From positions 1 through 44,772 of the forward strand of contig JAZQTI010000010.1 in NCBI GenBank assembly GCA_045630665.1: DNA of 44,772 nucleotides, given 5' to 3'. Numbering within the stretch: the first letter of the stretch is position 1; every line of letters starts with the position of its first letter. The notes under the pieces are model-generated. The model saw only the letters and a program-made list of their open reading frames with translations. It was not told the origin of the DNA and did not search any database. Both the position numbers and the translations under genes were made by a program. Positions 2,462-10,605 of the stretch are shown here, one piece after another. Source of the DNA: Candidatus Scatovivens sp. (GTDB lineage: Bacteria > Bacillota > Clostridia > TANB77 > CAG-508).

Positions 2462-2623
2462 ACGGCTGAAATAACTAGCTTATTTCAGGTAACTGCAAGT
2501 TTTGCTAGAATTCTAGCAGTTCTTGTTTAAACACTTATGTCTCTCTTCGAAAAGGAGGTTTTTTCAATAAAGAGAGATGCTCGTAACTATTGTATTTGTA
2601 GACCTTGAAAGGAGTGTTTTCGT

Positions 2624-5026
2624 ATGCCTTTTACTAGTACCCAGATGGCACTTAAGGCTCATTACGAGGATGCGGCCCGGACCTTGTTTAACAAGAATTT
2701 GGGAAGCCTCAATCCTTATGAGCTGAACAATGTCATCGCTAAAGTGGTAAAAGAACATGTGATTCCTAAGAACTGGAATCGTTCTCGTAACCTGTATTCT
2801 CGAAAGAGAATCACTGTCTATTTCTCTGCTGAGTTTCTGAACGGTCGTGTTGTTCTCGATCATCTGAACAACGCTGGCCTCCTGAAGGCAACCGAGAAGA
2901 TCTTCAAAAGAGAAAATATCGATATTAAATGCCTGGAAACCATCGAAGATCCCGCATTGGGAAATGGTGGCCTTGGTCGTCTGGCTGCATGTTTCATCGA
3001 ATCTGCAGCAACCCAGGGCTTGCCTCTGTTTGGTGTGGGCCTGTACTACAAGTACGGTCTGTTCAAGCAGAAATTCGATGCCAATGGCTACCAGCAGGCT
3101 GAGCCTGATATCTGGGATGCCAACATGGAACCTTGGTTCGAACCTCATTATGAGGATGAGCAGATTATCACCTTTGCAGATACTCGTGTTCGCGCAGTGC
3201 CTTATGAAATGCCTGTCCTTGGCTATAATGCTGATGAAGGTGAGTATAATGCACCTGTATTCCCGTTCAGAGTGTGGAAGGCTGAGCCTATTGAAGGTGT
3301 AACCAATGCCTCTGCAGCTGCAATTTCTGATTGGCTCTATCCGAATGATGAAAACGAAGATGGCAAGATTCTGCGTCTGCGTCAGGAGTACTTCTTCGTG
3401 AGTGCTGAAATGCAGACTCTGATTAACCGCCATCTGAAGATCCACGGTACCCTCGACAACTTTGAAGAGTACTATTTCTTCCAGATGAACGATACCCATC
3501 CTGTTATGGGCTGTCTGGAGTTTATCAGACTCTTCGAAAACCATGGCTACACTTTCAACGAAGCTTTCGAAAAAGCATGCAAGTGTTTCGCTTATACGAA
3601 CCACACTATCATGCCCGAAGCTCTGGAGAAGTGGAACCGCGTTATGTTCAAGAATCTGCTGCCTGACATCCATCAGGTCATCAATGACATCAATAAGAGA
3701 CTCATTGATGAATTGTCTGCCAAGGATGAGTTCAGTAAGATCAAGTATGAGAACGGTAGCTATGTGAGCGAAGCAGACTGGGACAAGATCAATCCTTACG
3801 AAATGTTCCAGGATGGTAGTATTCATATGAGCCGTATCGCATGCTATGTTGGTTCTAAGATCAACGGTGTTGCGAAGGTTCATACTGATATTATCATGAA
3901 AACTCTGCTGGCAAACTGGTGCGAACTGTATCCCGAAAAGTTCATCAATATTACCAATGGTGTTACCCCGAGACGTTGGGTTAGCCTGTCCAACCCGGAT
4001 CTGGCTGAATTCCTCGACAAGTACGCTGGTAATGGATGGATCACCAACATGAGTATGCTGTCCAGACTGGAACAGTATAAGAATGATCATGCGGTTCTTA
4101 CTGAATTTGCTGGAATCAAGATGAATGCCAAGGTAAAACTGGCAGAAGAAATCTACCAGCGCGAAGGTATCAGAATCGATCCGAACAGCATTTTCGACAT
4201 CCAGGTAAAGAGAATCCACGAATATAAGCGTCAGCTGATGAATGCTCTGAGAATTCTGAGAATTTATCAGCTCATCAAGCAGGGCAAGTTGCCCGACTTC
4301 TACAAGACCACCTTCATCATTGCAGGTAAGGCAGCAATGTCTTACAAGAAGGCAATCCAGACCATCGCTCTTATTAAAGACATTCAGAATCTGGTCAACA
4401 ATGACCCTGATGTCAGAGATAAGATGCAGGTTGTGTTCCTGACCAACTTCAATGTTTCTTACGCTGAAAAGATTTATGCCGCAGCTAACTTCTCTGAGCA
4501 GATTAGTACTGCTGGTACTGAAGCTTCCGGCACTGGCAACATGAAGTTCATGATGAACGGTGCACCTACTATCGGAACCTGGGATGGTGCGAATATCGAA
4601 ATCATCCTCGCATCCGGTAGAAAGAACAACTACGAGTTCGGCGCTCGAGTCGAACAGCTGAAAGCTATTGAGAAGCAGTATCAGCATGAACAGGGACGTT
4701 TCGTCAAATCCTACATGTATGATGTTGCTCGTCTCCTGAAGGATAAAACCCTTCTGCCTAATGCATATTGGGAGCTTTACAGCACGATTACTCTGGAAGA
4801 CAAGTATTACGTTATGCTTGATCTGGAAGCATATATCGAGACTACGCTTCGTGCAAATGCCGATTATGCTGCAGAACAGAGAACTGGCGATCTGTCTCAC
4901 CATACCAGAAAGGCTATGAAGAATACTGCCGCATCTGGTGTGTTCTCCTCTGACCGTACTGTTCAGGAATATGCTAAGCATATTTGGCATATTGAGCCGA
5001 TTTGCTGGGAAGATTTGACCGAATAA
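2624..5026 (+). CDS. glgP: Glycogen/maltodextrin phosphorylase (GT35)
   Basis: 800 aa. Contains EDPALGNGGLGRLAACF and the PLP-lysine motif EASGTGNMKFMMNGA. RBS AAAGGAG. About 48% GC against the AT-rich background. Confidence 0.95.
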   Translation: MPFTSTQMALKAHYEDAARTLFNKNLGSLNPYELNNVIAKVVKEHVIPKNWNRSRNLYSRKRITVYFSAEFLNGRVVLDHLNNAGLLKATEKIFKRENIDIKCLETIEDPALGNGGLGRLAACFIESAATQGLPLFGVGLYYKYGLFKQKFDANGYQQAEPDIWDANMEPWFEPHYEDEQIITFADTRVRAVPYEMPVLGYNADEGEYNAPVFPFRVWKAEPIEGVTNASAAAISDWLYPNDENEDGKILRLRQEYFFVSAEMQTLINRHLKIHGTLDNFEEYYFFQMNDTHPVMGCLEFIRLFENHGYTFNEAFEKACKCFAYTNHTIMPEALEKWNRVMFKNLLPDIHQVINDINKRLIDELSAKDEFSKIKYENGSYVSEADWDKINPYEMFQDGSIHMSRIACYVGSKINGVAKVHTDIIMKTLLANWCELYPEKFINITNGVTPRRWVSLSNPDLAEFLDKYAGNGWITNMSMLSRLEQYKNDHAVLTEFAGIKMNAKVKLAEEIYQREGIRIDPNSIFDIQVKRIHEYKRQLMNALRILRIYQLIKQGKLPDFYKTTFIIAGKAAMSYKKAIQTIALIKDIQNLVNNDPDVRDKMQVVFLTNFNVSYAEKIYAAANFSEQISTAGTEASGTGNMKFMMNGAPTIGTWDGANIEIILASGRKNNYEFGARVEQLKAIEKQYQHEQGRFVKSYMYDVARLLKDKTLLPNAYWELYSTITLEDKYYVMLDLEAYIETTLRANADYAAEQRTGDLSHHTRKAMKNTAASGVFSSDRTVQEYAKHIWHIEPICWEDLTE

Positions 5027-5046
5027 ACGACAAGACATAAGAATGT

Positions 5047-5079
5047 CCCCCGGAGCATTGCTCCGGGGTTTCATTTTAT
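5047..5079 (+). terminator. Rho-independent terminator after glgP
   Basis: CCCCGGAG-cattg-CTCCGGGG stem followed by TTTCATTTT. Confidence 0.8.
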
Positions 5080-5120
5080 GCAAATAAAACTTGAAATTAA
5101 AATTATAGCATGTTACGTAA

Positions 5121-5625: not shown

Positions 5626-6201
5626 ATGGGAAAAACATCCATTGGGCAGACTCAAATCAAGATTCCAGATGATACCTTGGTTCTGATCTGTGGTTCACAA
5701 AACAGCGGTAAAACAACATTTACCAAGAAACATTTTACAGGCAAAAGCATACTTACAACAGACGAGATTTTTGAAGAAATCGTAAATACAAGATCTAATA
5801 TATTCGATACTCAGAAATCTTTAGCAATGCGGACACAAGAAGTTTTTGAAGAAAGACTATTTCAGATGAAAAAAGATGGCGCCTCCATTGTTGTTGTGGA
5901 TGCAGCACCAATTGAATTTGATGCAAGAATGGCTCTGCTTACTCGTTTTAAAAGAGTATATTCAAATGTGATTCTTATTGTTCTGGATGTAAAATATCCA
6001 ACTTTGAAGGCACGTCCTAAAAAGAAGGTGAACAAAAAGAAAAAACATTTTGGAATAACTCCAATAAGTGACGAGGAACTGTTGTATAACTCATTGATCA
6101 TAAGGGAACAAATCCTAAAAGGTCAGTTTGGTTTTAAAGTAAATCAAGCATATATTCTTTCAGAAAATGATGTTGGAAAATGTGAAGTATTGTTCGAGTA
6201 A
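5626..6201 (+). CDS. P-loop NTPase/kinase-like protein (AAA_33 or polynucleotide-kinase-like)
   Basis: Walker A GSQNSGKTT, Walker B-like IVVVDA, RBS AGAGGGA. 191 aa. Confidence 0.6.
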   Translation: MGKTSIGQTQIKIPDDTLVLICGSQNSGKTTFTKKHFTGKSILTTDEIFEEIVNTRSNIFDTQKSLAMRTQEVFEERLFQMKKDGASIVVVDAAPIEFDARMALLTRFKRVYSNVILIVLDVKYPTLKARPKKKVNKKKKHFGITPISDEELLYNSLIIREQILKGQFGFKVNQAYILSENDVGKCEVLFE

Positions 6202-6212
6202 TCACAAAAAGA

Positions 6213-6247
6213 AGCGGAATCCTATGCACTAGGATTTCCGCTTTTTT
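6213..6247 (+). terminator. Rho-independent terminator
   Basis: AGCGGAATCCTA-tgcac-TAGGATTTCCGCT stem followed by T6. Confidence 0.8.
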
Positions 6248-6376: not shown

Positions 6377-6406
6377 TTGACATTTTTTTACAAAGGAACA
6401 TATAAT
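6377..6406 (+). promoter_or_regulatory. Putative promoter TTGACA-18-TATAAT for the trp leader and trpB
   Basis: TTGACA at 6377-6382 and TATAAT at 6401-6406. Confidence 0.6.
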
Positions 6407-6430
6407 ATTAGTATAGCAAAGGAGAACGCC

Positions 6431-6514
6431 ATGTTTAATGTAAAGAACGTTAAATTAAATAACTGGTGGCAAGTATGGGTAAAAAATTACTCATACAGTT
6501 TTTGCATGCTATAA
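6431..6514 (+). CDS. Trp-rich leader peptide (27 aa, MFNVKNVKLNNWWQVWVKNYSYSFCML)
   Basis: RBS AAAGGAGAA 6 nt upstream. Three TGG codons: a tandem pair at 6464-6469 plus one at 6476-6478. Sits between the promoter and a terminator hairpin upstream of trpB. Confidence 0.7.
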   Translation: MFNVKNVKLNNWWQVWVKNYSYSFCML

Positions 6515-6551
6515 AATATAAAAATATTATATTATTAGTTTTGTTTCAAAG

Positions 6552-6594
6552 GCGCATGTATGAGTAATTGAGCTCGTATGTGCGCTTTTTGTTT
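6552..6594 (+). terminator. Attenuator terminator upstream of trpB
   Basis: 13-bp stem GCGCATGTATGAG (6552-6564) / CTCGTATGTGCGC (6573-6585), including 3 G-U pairs, then TTTTTGTTTG. Its 5' arm TGTATGAG can instead pair with CTCATACA (6490-6497) inside the leader ORF. Confidence 0.7.
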
Positions 6595-6703
6595 GCAAAA
6601 ATAAAAGGAGGTGGCACTATGGAATCTGACTGGCACTGGGAAAGAAGTGCAAATAAAAATTTAAAAGAAAAAAATCAATTAAAAAAGAAAGAAGGAATTA
6701 ATT

Positions 6704-7858
6704 ATGGAATTTGGAAAATTTGGTGGACAATATGTGCCACAAAACTTAAAAGAAAGATTAAATGAAATTGAAAGAGAATTTGAAAAAGCAAAAGAAGATG
6801 AGAATTTTAAAAAAGAATATTTATATTATTTGAAACAATTTGTTGGAAGACCAACTCCATTGTATTTTGCTGAAAACTTAACAAAATATGCTGGTGGGGC
6901 AAAAATATTTTTAAAAAGAGAAGATTTGAATCATACTGGAGCTCACAAAATTAATAATGCTATAGGCCAAGTGTTACTTGCAAAAAGAATGGGAAAAACA
7001 CATATAATTGCAGAAACTGGAGCAGGGCAACATGGAGTTGCAACAGCAACTGTATGCAGTTTATTTGGATTAGATTGTACTATATTTATGGGAAAAGAAG
7101 ATATAAAAAGACAAAAAGTAAATGTAGAAAAAATGAAACTTTTAGGTGCAAAAATACAAGAAGTAACAAAAGGAGAAGGAACATTAAAAGAAGCAGTAGA
7201 TGAAGCATTTGAATATCTTATAGAAAATGATGAAATCTTTTATTTGATAGGTTCTGCTGTTGGACCTGCACCATATCCAATGATTGTTAAAGAATTTCAA
7301 AAAATAATAGGAGAAGAAACTAAATCTCAAATTTTAGAATTTGAAAACAAATTACCAAAAGCAATAGTGGCATGTGTTGGAGGCGGAAGTAACAGTATAG
7401 GTCTATTTACAGATTTTATAAAAGAAAAAGATGTAGATATTTATGGAGTAGAAGGCGCAGGAAATGGAATAGAAACAGGAAAACATGCGGCTGCAATACA
7501 AAATAATACAGTAGGAATCATGCATGGAATGAAAACATTTATAATGCAAGATGAAAAAGGAAATATAAAAGATGCATACTCAATATCTGCAGGACTTGAT
7601 TATCCAGGAATAGGACCAGAACATGCATATTTAGCAAGCATAGGAAGAGTAAAATATGATTCAGTAACTGATAATGAAGCAATAGAAAGTTTTAAACTTC
7701 TAACAAAATTAGAAGGAATTATTCCTGCATTAGAAAGTTGTCATGCAATAAGTTATGGAATAAAAATAGCCCCCAAATATAATAAAGAAGATTCTATAAT
7801 TGTTAATTTGTCTGGAAGGGGAGATAAAGACATTGAAACAATATTGAATTTAAGTTAG
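6704..7858 (+). CDS. trpB: Tryptophan synthase beta chain
   Basis: 384 aa. Contains FGGQYVP, the PLP-Lys motif HTGAHKINN and GGGSNSIG. No trpA or any other trp gene is nearby. Confidence 0.95.
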
Positions 7859-7925: not shown

Positions 7926-7954
7926 TTGAAAAATTATGTAAATTGTGCTATAAT
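7926..7954 (+). promoter_or_regulatory. Putative promoter TTGAAA-17-TGcTATAAT
   Basis: -35 at 7926-7931 and -10 at 7949-7954. The core 7933-7957 matches 33094-33118 at 23 of 25 positions. Confidence 0.6.
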
Positions 7955-8058: not shown

Positions 8059-8259
8059 ATGAAGGAAACCTATTCTAAGCACTGGGACAACAAGCATGGA
8101 TTTACCTACAAGGAGGCTCTCGAGAAAAAGGCGAAAGTCGAAGAAGGATTGGATCTGAATGATCCTAAGTGCAAGTGGAACCCCGCTGTGATTGAACCTG
8201 ATCCTGATCGTGTTGATGGCTACCGTGTAGTCAGAAAAACCAAGTCTGAAAAAGACTAA
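8059..8259 (+). CDS. Small hypothetical protein (66 aa), moderate GC
   Basis: RBS AGGGAGGAAAAAG and its own terminator. The antisense 78-aa ORF has no signals. Confidence 0.6.
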   Translation: MKETYSKHWDNKHGFTYKEALEKKAKVEEGLDLNDPKCKWNPAVIEPDPDRVDGYRVVRKTKSEKD

Positions 8260-8263
8260 GTGT

Positions 8264-8299
8264 AAAGCAGCTCGCATCCGTGAGCTGCTTTACTATTTT
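8264..8299 (+). terminator. Rho-independent terminator
   Basis: AAAGCAGCTC-gcatccgt-GAGCTGCTTT stem followed by a T-rich tail. Confidence 0.75.
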
Positions 8300-8439: not shown

Positions 8440-8556
8440 ATGTCGATAGGTAATAAATTAATTTATCTATTAATAAAAAAGAAAAAAGGTCCTAATAAAA
8501 TACTATCTAAAATAGCATCAAAAAGAAAATATGGAAACAGTATAAGTGCAAGTTAA
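8440..8556 (+). CDS. Candidate small basic peptide (38 aa, MSIGNKLIYLLIKKKKGPNKILSKIASKRKYGNSISAS)
   Basis: Not in the ORF track because it is under 60 aa. Perfect RBS AGGAGG 7 nt upstream of the ATG. The stop abuts a terminator hairpin. Confidence 0.4.
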   Translation: MSIGNKLIYLLIKKKKGPNKILSKIASKRKYGNSISAS

Positions 8557-8592
8557 AGAGAAGGGTGTATCATATCAACCTTCTCTTTTTTG
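8556..8592 (+). terminator. Rho-independent terminator
   Basis: AAGAGAAGG / CCTTCTCTT stem followed by a T-tract. Confidence 0.7.
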
Positions 8593-8670
8593 TTTGCTTT
8601 AAAAATAAAAAAGCAAGCAAAAGAAAAAATTTGAAATTGTCTAAAAAACTGCGTTTGTTTACAATAATAG

Positions 8671-8699
8671 TTGACAATAATGTTTGACCGTGATAAAAT
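8671..8699 (+). promoter_or_regulatory. Putative promoter TTGACA-17-TGaTAAAAT
   Basis: Consensus -35 at 8671-8676 and extended -10 at 8691-8699. Confidence 0.6.
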
Positions 8700-8762
8700 T
8701 CGCTTGCAGCAAGTGCTGTAGAATCCATTCAATATAATTATATGATAGGAGGTATTTGTGCT

Positions 8763-9938
8763 ATGCATGGGAAACCAAGACCAGGAGTGATTTCGAAAGG
8801 AATCAGAACTCCAATCATCATGCCGGGCAATGATGTTGTAAAAATCGTTGTTGACTCGGTAATCGCTGCGGTGGGTGTCGATGGTGTTCAGGAAAATGAC
8901 GCAATCGGTACTACTGAAGCAGTAGTGGCCATCGGCCAAGGAAACATCGTTACACAAGAGGAGGTTGTAGCTGATCTGAGTGCTAAGTTCGCAGGAGCAA
9001 AAGCAATCGCAGTTGTTGACCCGATCCAGAGCAGAAACAGATTCATGGCAATCTTGAAAGCCGTGGCTGCTATGCCTGAAATCAAGACTATTTACGTGGT
9101 TATGACTTACCCTACTGACGAAGTGGGTAACCGTCTGGTTTCTGAGGAAACTATGATGGAAAGCGGAGTAAATCCGTATCGTGATCTTCTTTCTCAAGAA
9201 GAGTTCTACAGAAGACTTGGAAAACCTTGTCATCCTTTCACTGGAAAGGACTACATGGAAATGTACAAGGAAATCTGTGGAGAAAAGGGAAAAATCCTGA
9301 TGTGCAACGACTTTTCTCAGATTCCTGCAATCTGCGGCGATGTGCTTGTATGCAGTATTCACAGAAGAGCGATGACTAAACGTATTCTTTTGAAGAATGG
9401 GGCAAACCGTGTGCTTGTCCTTTCTGAAATTATGAATGCACCTGTGAACGGCAGCGGCTACAATGCAGAATTCGGTCTGTATGGTAGCAACATTCAGGAC
9501 AATGATGATCTTAAATTGATGCCTAGAGACTGCGACAAGTTTGTCAAAGACGTTCAGGCAGAGATGTACAAGAGAACCGGTAAGCATGTTGAAGCCTATG
9601 TGTTTGGCGATGGAGCTTTTAAGGATCCTGTTGGAGGAATTTGGGAGTTGGCTGATCCGACTACTACTCCTGCAGCAACTGAAGGACTTCGCGGAACCCC
9701 TGAAGAGGTTAAGCTGAAGTACATCGCAAGTGTACACAAGGACAAATCTGCTGAAGAAATTGAGGAGATCGTGGCTGAGGAGAAGGCCGCAAGAAAGGCA
9801 GCAAAGGATATTACTGGAGCTGCATCTTTGGGAACTACTCCGAGACAGATCACTGACCTTATTTCTTCCCTTTCTGACCTTACTACCGGCAGCGGAGATC
9901 GTCAGACTCCGGTCGTGTTGGTACAAAATTACCTGTAA
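8763..9938 (+). CDS. CofE-like (F420-0:gamma-glutamyl ligase family fold) protein of unknown role
   Basis: The ORF is open from 8742. ATG 8763 lies 11 nt after AGGAGG. The pattern YGSN...DDLKLMPRD...TGKHVEAYVFGDG resembles the CofE (A)GID.SN...LLP.DPD signature. About 48% GC. Confidence 0.5.
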   Translation: MHGKPRPGVISKGIRTPIIMPGNDVVKIVVDSVIAAVGVDGVQENDAIGTTEAVVAIGQGNIVTQEEVVADLSAKFAGAKAIAVVDPIQSRNRFMAILKAVAAMPEIKTIYVVMTYPTDEVGNRLVSEETMMESGVNPYRDLLSQEEFYRRLGKPCHPFTGKDYMEMYKEICGEKGKILMCNDFSQIPAICGDVLVCSIHRRAMTKRILLKNGANRVLVLSEIMNAPVNGSGYNAEFGLYGSNIQDNDDLKLMPRDCDKFVKDVQAEMYKRTGKHVEAYVFGDGAFKDPVGGIWELADPTTTPAATEGLRGTPEEVKLKYIASVHKDKSAEEIEEIVAEEKAARKAAKDITGAASLGTTPRQITDLISSLSDLTTGSGDRQTPVVLVQNYL

Positions 9939-9972
9939 CAAGAAAAACCTATGAATAGGATTTTCTGACTTT

Positions 9973-10010
9973 GGGAGTATGCGTAAAAAACATACTCCCT
10001 TTGTTTTTTT
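9973..10010 (+). terminator. Rho-independent terminator
   Basis: GGGAGTATG / CATACTCCC stem followed by TTTGTTTTTTT. Confidence 0.8.
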
Positions 10011-10089
10011 AAAAATAAATATTGAATATAATTTTTTGTATTGATACAATATTAAAAATAGAATTATTTTACTAAAGAAAGGAGAAAAA

Positions 10090-10605
10090 ATGAAAAAAAC
10101 AGAAGTAGTACAAGAACCAAAAGAAAGAAAAGATTTAACAGCAAAAGCTTTTATGAAGATTGTTGTAGAAAATTGTTTTGTAAATATTATATTTTTTGGT
10201 TTTTTTCTAGGAATGATACAAATGCTAGCAAAAGAACATTTAAATGGAATATTATTAATTATAGCAACATTAATAATAACATATTTTGCCATTAAAAAAA
10301 TATTTGTAGATGCAGTTAGAGAAACTTTTTATAAAGGGAGAATTATAAGAAGTGAAATAAATAAAGTTGTACATGGTATTACAAAAATATTAGCAATTCT
10401 AATGCTTATTGAAATAGGAATGGATCTTTTCGATTTCTTTATTGGCTATGGAGCAGCGACTATATTAGCAATAAGAAATTTATATATAATTACAACATTG
10501 ATAGTAATAGTATTTGATATTTTGACATATGGATTAATAATGTTTTTTTGTAGAAAAAATTTCTTTGAACAATGTAAAAATCCTGAAAATATAGCAGAAG
10601 GGTAA
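10090..10605 (+). CDS. Hypothetical integral membrane protein
   Basis: 171 aa with several hydrophobic segments. RBS AAGGAGAAAAAA. Confidence 0.6.
   Translation: MKKTEVVQEPKERKDLTAKAFMKIVVENCFVNIIFFGFFLGMIQMLAKEHLNGILLIIATLIITYFAIKKIFVDAVRETFYKGRIIRSEINKVVHGITKILAILMLIEIGMDLFDFFIGYGAATILAIRNLYIITTLIVIVFDILTYGLIMFFCRKNFFEQCKNPENIAEG

Follow-up and report, generated by a model that had tools for sequence, protein, structure and literature searches.

In the leader of the Escherichia coli trp operon, trpL (Rfam family RF00513), a short open reading frame (ORF) with tandem tryptophan (Trp) codons in or next to the first pairing segment connects the charging of tRNA-Trp to a ladder of three helices, i.e., hairpin 1:2 (pause hairpin and anti-antiterminator), antiterminator 2:3 and terminator 3:4. 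In Firmicutes-type bacteria, by comparison, control of trp genes is usually described as TRAP or T-box regulation; a T-box specific for tRNA-Trp (RF00230) does the same job and also uses an intrinsic terminator as its output, but reads uncharged tRNA directly and independently of translation. Leader-peptide attenuation as such is known in this phylum, as His leader peptides have been predicted in Bacillus (B. cereus group), Peptostreptococcaceae and Erysipelotrichales (PMC2965389, PMC9413887) and a Leu-rich attenuator peptide of Staphylococcus aureus ilv-leu has been characterized experimentally (PMC5794164). A further candidate regulator, the trpB motif (RF04312), has been proposed as a riboswitch of Firmicutes and Fusobacteria located mostly upstream of ABC transporter genes, although its authors left open the possibility of a classic attenuator (Narunsky et al. 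2024, PMC11109978). Here we describe the leader of a trpB gene in a stretch of 44,772 nucleotides (nt) from Candidatus Scatovivens sp. (contig JAZQTI010000010.1; this whole stretch is referred to as the window). Sequence comparisons indicate that this leader is very probably a conserved, E. coli-style leader-peptide transcription attenuator. The leader and trpB comprise the following features, in window coordinates:

6377 to 6406, plus strand: sigma-70-type promoter, TTGACA at 6377-6382, an 18 nt spacer and TATAAT at 6401-6406, matching the consensus at 12 of 12 positions.
6419 to 6514, plus strand: upstream ORF 1 (uORF1), encoding the leader peptide MFNVKNVKLNNWWQVWVKNYSYSFCML, with the Shine-Dalgarno sequence (SD) AAGGAG at 6419-6424, ATG at 6431, 27 codons and the stop codon at 6512-6514.
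6473 to 6496, plus strand: hairpin 1:2, 10 bp, segment 1 GTATGGGTAA (6473-6482) with segment 2 TTACTCATAC (6487-6496), followed by a U-run at 6499-6503.
6487 to 6567, plus strand: antiterminator 2:3, 11 bp and perfect, TTACTCATACA (6487-6497) with TGTATGAGTAA (6557-6567).
6552 to 6595, plus strand: intrinsic terminator 3:4, a 14-bp stem of 6552-6565 with 6572-6585, followed by TTTTTGTTTG (T-run 6586-6595).
6691 to 7858, plus strand: trpB, with the SD GAAGGAA at 6691-6697 and ATG at 6704, encoding a 384 amino acid (aa) protein with a PALP fold (PF00291).

The window leader shares the layout of trpL, and all features of such an attenuator that can be tested on sequence were found, i.e., a leader ORF, conserved Trp codons and the helices 1:2, 2:3 and 3:4, with mean free energies of -8.2, -13.3 and -19.9 kcal/mol, respectively, over 49 leaders of the family described below. 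The helices of E. coli trpL follow the same order of energies. An earlier note on this DNA, made from the sequence alone, had proposed a classic trpL-type Trp attenuator, and each defining element of this proposal is present and is conserved in relatives. As the window leader and trpL show no similarity at the level of sequence or Rfam family, the two are analogues rather than homologues, and the window leader would represent an independent invention. Compared to trpL, the window peptide is longer (27 vs. 14 aa), the stop codon lies 15 nt past segment 2, so that a terminating ribosome would not mask this segment, segments 2 and 3 are separated by an AT-rich spacer of 33-61 nt across the family, the leader controls a lone trpB rather than trpEDCBA, and a second Trp-codon uORF is present behind the window leader only. 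The His and Leu leaders of Firmicutes share with the window leader the phylum and the class of mechanism (a short ORF bearing the sensor codons, alternative hairpins and an intrinsic terminator); the window leader differs in sensing Trp, in the gene controlled and in its uncultured, low-GC Clostridia lineage, and shows no homology to them. The earlier note had also considered a Trp leader peptide unusual for Firmicutes, where TRAP and T-boxes are the norm. A literature search, mostly outside subscription journals, found neither a Trp-codon leader peptide in Firmicutes nor a two-uORF arrangement; the rarity was overstated with regard to leader peptides in general. Overall, while leader-peptide attenuation in Firmicutes is known, the Trp family and its two-stage layout appear to be new.

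Two sets of relatives were analyzed. Loci in the TrpB-anchored set (L001, L081-L090, L095 and L209/L210; contigs were obtained for nine proteins of the TrpB search) were selected by similarity to the window TrpB without any leader query, so that their leader features are unbiased. The underlying protein search found more than 100 TrpB proteins 80-100% identical to that of the window, all derived from metagenomes or metagenome-assembled genomes (MAGs); the top species-level genome match among the matches listed was L001, a rumen Ruminococcaceae MAG with a TrpB 71% identical to that of the window, and TrpB identities for L081-L090 and L095 were 81-97%. The second set was obtained by scanning metagenomes with the pattern AAYAAYTKGTGGNNNGTATGGG, which yielded 112 loci, approx. 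62 of which are true leaders of this family (peptide consensus M..L.N.KLNNWW.VW..NHPY.FVVL). In this set the Trp codons and segment 1 are imposed by the query, and segment 2, the spacer, the terminator and all downstream sequence are free. Structure tests were performed on an alignment (A1) of 49 distinct leaders. Every pattern-scan leader with enough downstream DNA was followed, on the same strand, by a trpB gene encoding a protein 70-97% identical to that of the window. The remaining loci are unrelated, and most of them (L097, L098, L102, L104, L105 and about 35 more) represent a family of Cys-rich ORFs of approx. 92 aa from gut metagenomes (CCRCCRCCNCGNNCG...DNNWWPVW...YRAGFNEGYRVGFEDGRRNWRP).

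The promoter, the 27-aa leader ORF with its good ribosome-binding site and the three Trp codons, i.e., a tandem at 6464-6466 and 6467-6469 (codons 12 and 13) and a third at 6476-6478 (codon 16), had been read correctly in the earlier note. Near-consensus -35 and -10 elements with a spacer of 17-18 nt were found 21-32 nt upstream of the uORF1 ATG in 45 of 60 distinct upstream regions, and the SD, which ends 6 nt upstream of the ATG in the window, ended 6-10 nt upstream in 50 of the 60. Except for one lineage that carries a T-box instead, all TrpB-anchored relatives encode a uORF1 homologue of 18-30 aa with the motif NN[WLIR]WxVW, as do the approx. 62 pattern-scan loci; these TrpB-anchored relatives also show the consensus promoter, hairpin 1:2, the AT-rich spacer, a terminator with an arm complementary to segment 2, the T-run and a second ORF, uORF2. 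The W-x-V-W portion of the peptide was kept in 10 of the 10 other distinct TrpB-anchored leaders. Across the family, in which the leader has 25% GC, the SD and ATG of uORF1 are maintained and its frame stays open for 18-30 codons, and the N-terminal residues vary. As Trp represents 0.52% of the residues encoded by window genes, the probability of at least three Trp in 27 codons is approx. 4 × 10-4, and the 44.8 kb contained only one other ATG-initiated ORF of up to 45 aa with three or more Trp. Short Trp-rich ORFs upstream of trpB in L021, L034, L046 and L060 are out-of-frame stretches within trpF or another upstream gene and were rejected as leaders.

The 3' end of uORF1 (6498-6514 in the window; consensus TTTGTCGTGCTTTAA, peptide ..FVVL*) is strongly conserved at the nucleotide level, and this may reflect a pause signal or an effect of the peptide. 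An inner extension of the antiterminator, in which GTGCTT of this 3' end would bind AAGCAC in the basal part of the terminator 5' arm, was paired in 82.7% of cells; since its covariation did not exceed that of shuffles, this extension is not claimed.

Hairpin 1:2, which had not been recognized in the earlier note, was found with a folding program and a terminator scan, and holds the third Trp codon. Its 7-bp core (GTATGGG/C[CT]CATAC) was paired in 49 of 49 leaders, with segment 1 fixed by the query and segment 2 free, and across the family the hairpin measures 7-10 bp with a loop of 4-8 nt. The complementarity behind the antiterminator had been given as 8 nt, CTCATACA (6490-6497) with TGTATGAG (6557-6564); it is present and perfect, but its full extent is 11 nt (6487-6497 with 6557-6567). 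Similarly, the terminator hairpin at 6552-6585 and its T-run are located as previously described, but the stem has 14 rather than 13 bp. Four of these 14 pairs are G-U, and further A-U and G-U pairs can lengthen the stem to 17 bp. In L210 (1360-1480) the terminator occurs as a tandem duplicate, i.e., two units of hairpin plus T-run, between uORF1 and uORF2.

Both of the competing helices were supported by covariation among the 49 leaders. For the terminator, 95.9% of cells were paired, 8 of the 14 pairs changed on both sides and the covariation score was not reached in any of 500 shuffles; shifting the partner by 1-3 columns reduced pairing to 21-60%. For the antiterminator, 84% of cells were paired in a gap-naive alignment and 25 cells were doubly changed, as compared to 11.3 ± 2.4 in shuffles; neither this count nor the covariation score was reached in 500 shuffles. 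When a structure-aware register was used, five antiterminator positions showed two to three Watson-Crick pair types (e.g., UA in 13, CG in 23 and AU in 3 leaders at one position). A comparable change of both strands separates L001, with CCATACA:TGTGTGG, from the window, with CTCATACA:TGTATGAG. When all upstream stretches of 14 nt were compared as partners for the 5' arm of the terminator, segment 2 ranked first in 48 of 49 leaders, with a mean free energy of -13.3 kcal/mol as compared to -7.8 kcal/mol for the best other stretch, and none of 200 shuffles of segment 2 paired equally well with this arm. The window leader as a whole also folds better than chance (z = -5.85; as good a fold in 0 of 200 shuffles). 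Overall, the check on relatives proposed in the earlier note showed conservation of the Trp codons and hairpins as well as compensatory changes, in the TrpB-anchored leaders and in the 49-leader alignment.

Under the proposed mechanism, transcription would start at approx. 6413 and RNA polymerase would synthesize hairpin 1:2 and its U-run, a likely pause site, after which a ribosome translating uORF1 would melt this hairpin. At low levels of charged tRNA-Trp, the ribosome would stall with codon 12 or 13 (6464-6469) in its A site. Footprint arithmetic places a ribosome stalled at these codons over approx. 6449-6482, which includes all of segment 1 and no part of segment 2, in agreement with the previous suggestion that stalling at the Trp codons leaves segment 2 free. 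Free segment 2 (6487-6497) would pair with segment 3 (6557-6567) once the latter is made, so that no terminator would form and the polymerase would read through. If Trp is plentiful, the ribosome would pass segments 1 and 2 to reach the stop codon and hairpin 1:2 would re-form behind it; if uORF1 is not translated, hairpin 1:2 would never melt. With hairpin 1:2 formed, 3:4 would pair and transcription would end at the T-run (6586-6595). The earlier note had instead assumed that a ribosome at the stop codon masks 6490-6497, which is probably wrong, as the footprint of such a ribosome (approx. 6497-6525) barely reaches segment 2; the re-formed hairpin 1:2 is the likelier anti-antiterminator. A few relatives have the uORF1 stop codon inside the loop of 1:2 (e.g., L154, MNYLNNLHLNNWWTVWEK), and judging from this placement a terminating ribosome would mask segment 2 in these leaders, as in E. 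coli. It is tempting to speculate that hairpin 1:2 with its U-rich sequence, which resembles the E. coli pause hairpin, could together with the long spacer allow the ribosome to catch up.

Some observations weigh against this assignment. The first of the tandem Trp codons is replaced by a Leu, Ile or Arg codon in 3 of the 10 TrpB-anchored leaders, unbiased evidence for the Trp codons and segment 1 is limited to these 10 other distinct leaders, and all relatives are metagenomic. At equilibrium the terminator (-20 kcal/mol) is more stable than the antiterminator (-13 kcal/mol), and the terminator still won in most sequences when the ribosome footprint was masked during folding. As the terminator is the most stable helix, the switch must be kinetic, which folding alone cannot establish; because the choice must be kinetic, minimum-free-energy folding is uninformative on the switch, and per-helix energies and partner tests were used. 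A kinetic switch presupposes synchrony of ribosome and polymerase, which is an assumption for a Clostridia-type host, since transcription reportedly outruns translation in Bacillus subtilis, and the pause role of hairpin 1:2 is likewise inferred.

Known Trp sensors were sought in the leader. Neither the window nor eight relatives that share this leader gave any Rfam match at the gathering score; T-box (RF00230) searches of the window gave no match even at E ≤ 10, and Trp_leader (RF00513) gave none at the gathering score or at E ≤ 10. TRAP sites consist of 9-11 (G/U)AG triplets spaced by 2-3 nt; the leader contains seven such triplets in total within 298 nt and no run of five or more. Neither a T-box nor a TRAP site, either of which the earlier note would have taken as evidence against its proposal, was thus found in the window. 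Conversely, a sister lineage from the human gut (L091-L094; TrpB 83% identical to that of the window) carries a tRNA-Trp T-box in place of the uORF1 leader. The match in L091 (2657-2879; 88.8 bits, just below the gathering score, E = 6 × 10-20, specifier UGG) also served as a positive control for the T-box search of the window. Judged from these sequences, the two lineages represent a sensor swap on orthologous trpB genes; sensor swaps on other Firmicutes genes have been described (PMC2965389). The terminator unit is present in two to three tandem copies in L091 (downstream to 3000), L092 and L093, with an N-run at this place in L092.

How far can other mechanisms account for the leader? Since equilibrium folding always favors the terminator, the element could represent a leaky terminator that acts constitutively or, alternatively, could form the 3' end of a small RNA, with fortuitous alternative pairings; this is scarcely credible, however, for an element in which segment 2 is nearly always the best partner of the terminator arm and covaries with it, and which is always located directly upstream of trpB on the same strand. 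Regulation by uncharged tRNA-Trp through a T-box, or by a TRAP-like Trp-activated RNA-binding protein, has a precedent in the T-box of the sister lineage, but is equally improbable here, given the negative searches for both and a leader of approx. 180 nt between promoter and terminator that is taken up by uORF1 and the three helices. Slightly less improbable, though still very unlikely, is a ligand- or protein-binding, riboswitch-like attenuator in which uORF1 would be incidental. In outline, the combination of hairpin 1:2 with a terminator, and with an antiterminator located in the right shoulder of P1, corresponds to RF04312 (PMC11109978), which is likewise a Firmicutes element, is sometimes located upstream of trpB and consists of two hairpins, the second being the terminator. 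A weak match of RF04312 to the window was indeed detected; however, it scores no more than 19.2 bits, as compared to a gathering score of 59, and derives from alignment of the terminator alone, and none of the eight relatives searched reached the gathering score. The two elements also represent different sequence families, with an ABC transporter as the usual partner of RF04312 and trpB as the partner of the window leader. Furthermore, an incidental uORF1 would not be expected to keep its SD, ATG and open frame at 25% GC despite a variable N-terminus, nor to have its Trp codons at the precise place from which a stalled ribosome would occlude segment 1, and hairpin 1:2 is too small for an aptamer.

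Transcripts that pass the attenuator carry a second ORF with Trp codons, which the earlier note did not report although it begins inside the region which that note covered:

6604 to 6765, plus strand: uORF2, with the extended SD AAAGGAGGTGG at 6604-6614, ATG at 6619, 48 codons (MESDWHWERS...) and the stop codon at 6763-6765.

The SD of uORF2 is very strong and directly follows the T-run of the terminator. The Trp codons are codons 5 and 7 (6631-6633 and 6637-6639), and the ORF crosses the SD and ATG of trpB in the +1 frame to end 62 nt inside trpB. In relatives, uORF2 is among the ORFs called by gene callers. The 49 distinct copies start with M-[ED]-x-[DE]-W-x-W or ..G-W-W, followed by a variable, Lys-rich remainder; codon 5 specifies Trp in 43 copies and codon 7 does so in 36. 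In 40 of 43 leaders, the uORF2 and trpB starts are separated by a distance equal to 1 mod 3, which is realized with 12 different lengths from 58 to 139 nt; start mis-calls or a poor contig account for the other three leaders. Moreover, in each of 46 sequences examined only the uORF2 frame stays open over the trpB start, and both other frames contain a stop codon within 45 nt upstream; the uORF2 stop codon falls 53-83 nt inside trpB across the family. As this sole open frame persists in AT-rich sequence at a conserved phase, these sequences provide strong evidence that uORF2 is translated and that its reading across the trpB start is under selection.

The linker from the start region of uORF2 to trpB is unstructured (z = -0.79 in the window; no consensus pairs among 33 sequences). 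A hairpin sequestering the trpB SD was considered and rejected, as none is present. A programmed frameshift joining uORF2 to TrpB was also rejected, as there is a stop codon in the trpB frame 8 codons upstream of the ATG and no slippery site in the right direction, and so was Rho-dependent attenuation after uORF2, as the linker is A-rich, C-poor and not rut-like; no intrinsic terminator was found in early trpB. Inside uORF2, the second Trp codon is part of, or adjacent to, a small hairpin (6633-6637 with 6646-6650), for which a compensatory change distinguishes L101 from L121; as roughly half of the family has this hairpin, it is not characteristic of the family as a whole.

Out-of-frame uORFs that overlap a main ORF and block it are known from eukaryotes, uORF2 of ATF4 being an example. 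In bacteria, repressive overlapping uORFs with occlusion of the main ribosome-binding site have been reported (PMC13285730), as have mycobacterial uORF attenuators with Cys codons (bioRxiv 10.1101/834739). The window uORF2 shares with these systems the out-of-frame overlap of the main start with an end deep in the gene, or the putative gating by sensor codons, and it differs in that the putative gate would consist of two Trp codons (5 and 7) placed behind a transcription attenuator for the same signal; in addition, the occluders would be elongating ribosomes that initiate 58-139 nt upstream, rather than ribosomes parked on an adjacent ribosome-binding site. We hypothesize that uORF2 is a translational Trp gate on trpB, to which, based on sequence, we give at best an even chance. 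On read-through transcripts, ribosomes would load at the strong uORF2 SD. With Trp available, they would cross the A-rich linker, sweep over the trpB SD and ATG and hinder initiation there, and termination approx. 60 nt inside trpB would be too far downstream for re-initiation, so that less TrpB would be made. With Trp absent, they would stall or abort at codons 5-7, at least 50 nt upstream, and leave the trpB ribosome-binding site free. Somewhat more tentatively, the locus may be described as a two-tier sensor in which an attenuator is followed by an ATF4-like, out-of-frame overlapping uORF gated by its Trp codons 5 and 7. It is possible, on a similarly tentative footing, that the second tier moves with trpB independently of the first; a fused, in-frame form of it can be recognized behind the T-box of the sister lineage.

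Several observations count against such a gate. A minority of relatives (P0056, P0062, P0085, P0120 and P0106) have uORF2 in frame with trpB, where it would simply give an N-terminally extended TrpB, and in the T-box lineage (L091-L094) a uORF2-like start, MDVDWIC, with one Trp is fused in frame to TrpB. In addition, elongating ribosomes may achieve no more than a few-fold repression, and the proposed direction of the uORF2 effect follows from physiological logic. Some of these observations would be accounted for if the attenuator acted as described and uORF2 were not a Trp gate but a ribosome loader or mRNA protector (an ermC-like 5' stabilizer), an alternative start of TrpB or a decaying remnant. 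The in-frame versions in several lineages, which are called as TrpB proteins of 402-418 aa, the single Trp codon left in the T-box lineage and the restriction of the hairpin near the second Trp codon to about half of the family all favor this alternative. We nevertheless consider it unlikely, as a loader or stabilizer would not need to stay open over the trpB start. The +1 phase, by contrast, is preserved in 40 of 43 leaders with 12 different linker lengths, and stop codons close both other frames in all 46 sequences. Two early Trp codons are, in addition, kept where Trp makes up 0.5% of residues, and the in-frame stop codon upstream of the trpB ATG makes a frameshift fusion unlikely. Overall, the attenuator combined with the putative uORF2 gate is quite probably the best explanation of the leader, although our confidence in this longer account is lower than for the attenuator alone.

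The gene controlled contains no Trp codon itself. TrpB lacks Trp in the window as well as in 45 of 45 complete TrpB proteins from L081-L208, and it can therefore be made under Trp starvation, when tRNA-Trp is uncharged. No other trp genes were detected by Pfam in window ORFs of at least 120 aa outside trpB (antisense shadow ORFs left out) or in a 66-aa ORF downstream of trpB, and none were found within 3 kb of trpB in relatives. Because trpB stands alone, its likely role is the synthesis of Trp from indole and serine, i.e., indole salvage, in gut and rumen Clostridia. Upstream of the leader is a kinase-like gene (5626-6201) followed by a terminator hairpin (6216-6238). The features downstream of trpB are:

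8059 to 8259: conserved 66-aa ORF without a Pfam match, with its own near-consensus promoter at 7926-7954 (TTGAAA, 17 nt, TATAAT with TG).
8262 to 8293: bidirectional terminator of the 66-aa ORF, a perfect 14 bp.

Relatives contain a counterpart of this ORF with 64-67 aa. A Spo0A gene adjoins trpB in L088 and a sortase is encoded in the window; together with the MAG labels, these point indirectly to a Clostridia-type Firmicute host. The GC content of the window is 22-30%, with a few genes at 38-46% GC (2624-5026, 8742-9938, approx. 20.0-20.7 kb, 31-34 kb and 39-40 kb). These bear long antisense shadow ORFs (839 aa at 2564-5083 and 579 aa at 8553-10292); among these genes are those of glycogen phosphorylase (PF00343) and of an F420-ligase-like protein (PF01996), which also flank trpB in relatives. 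Either horizontal transfer or strong codon bias could explain the high GC content of these genes.

The leader described here adds a Trp attenuator family to the regulators of Firmicutes-type bacteria. The sister lineage with a T-box, with its closely related TrpB, allows for a direct comparison of two sensors on orthologous genes, and with its ribosome-timed terminator, its hairpin resembling a pause site and its long spacer, the leader provides a test case for how ribosome and polymerase are synchronized in a phylum in which the two are reportedly only loosely coupled. If the uORF2 gate is true, a single mRNA would read the charging of tRNA-Trp twice, once in transcription and once in translation, in a simple layout that is easily mutated. 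The leader probably controls salvage of indole to Trp and thus bears on the flux of indole and Trp in gut and rumen communities.

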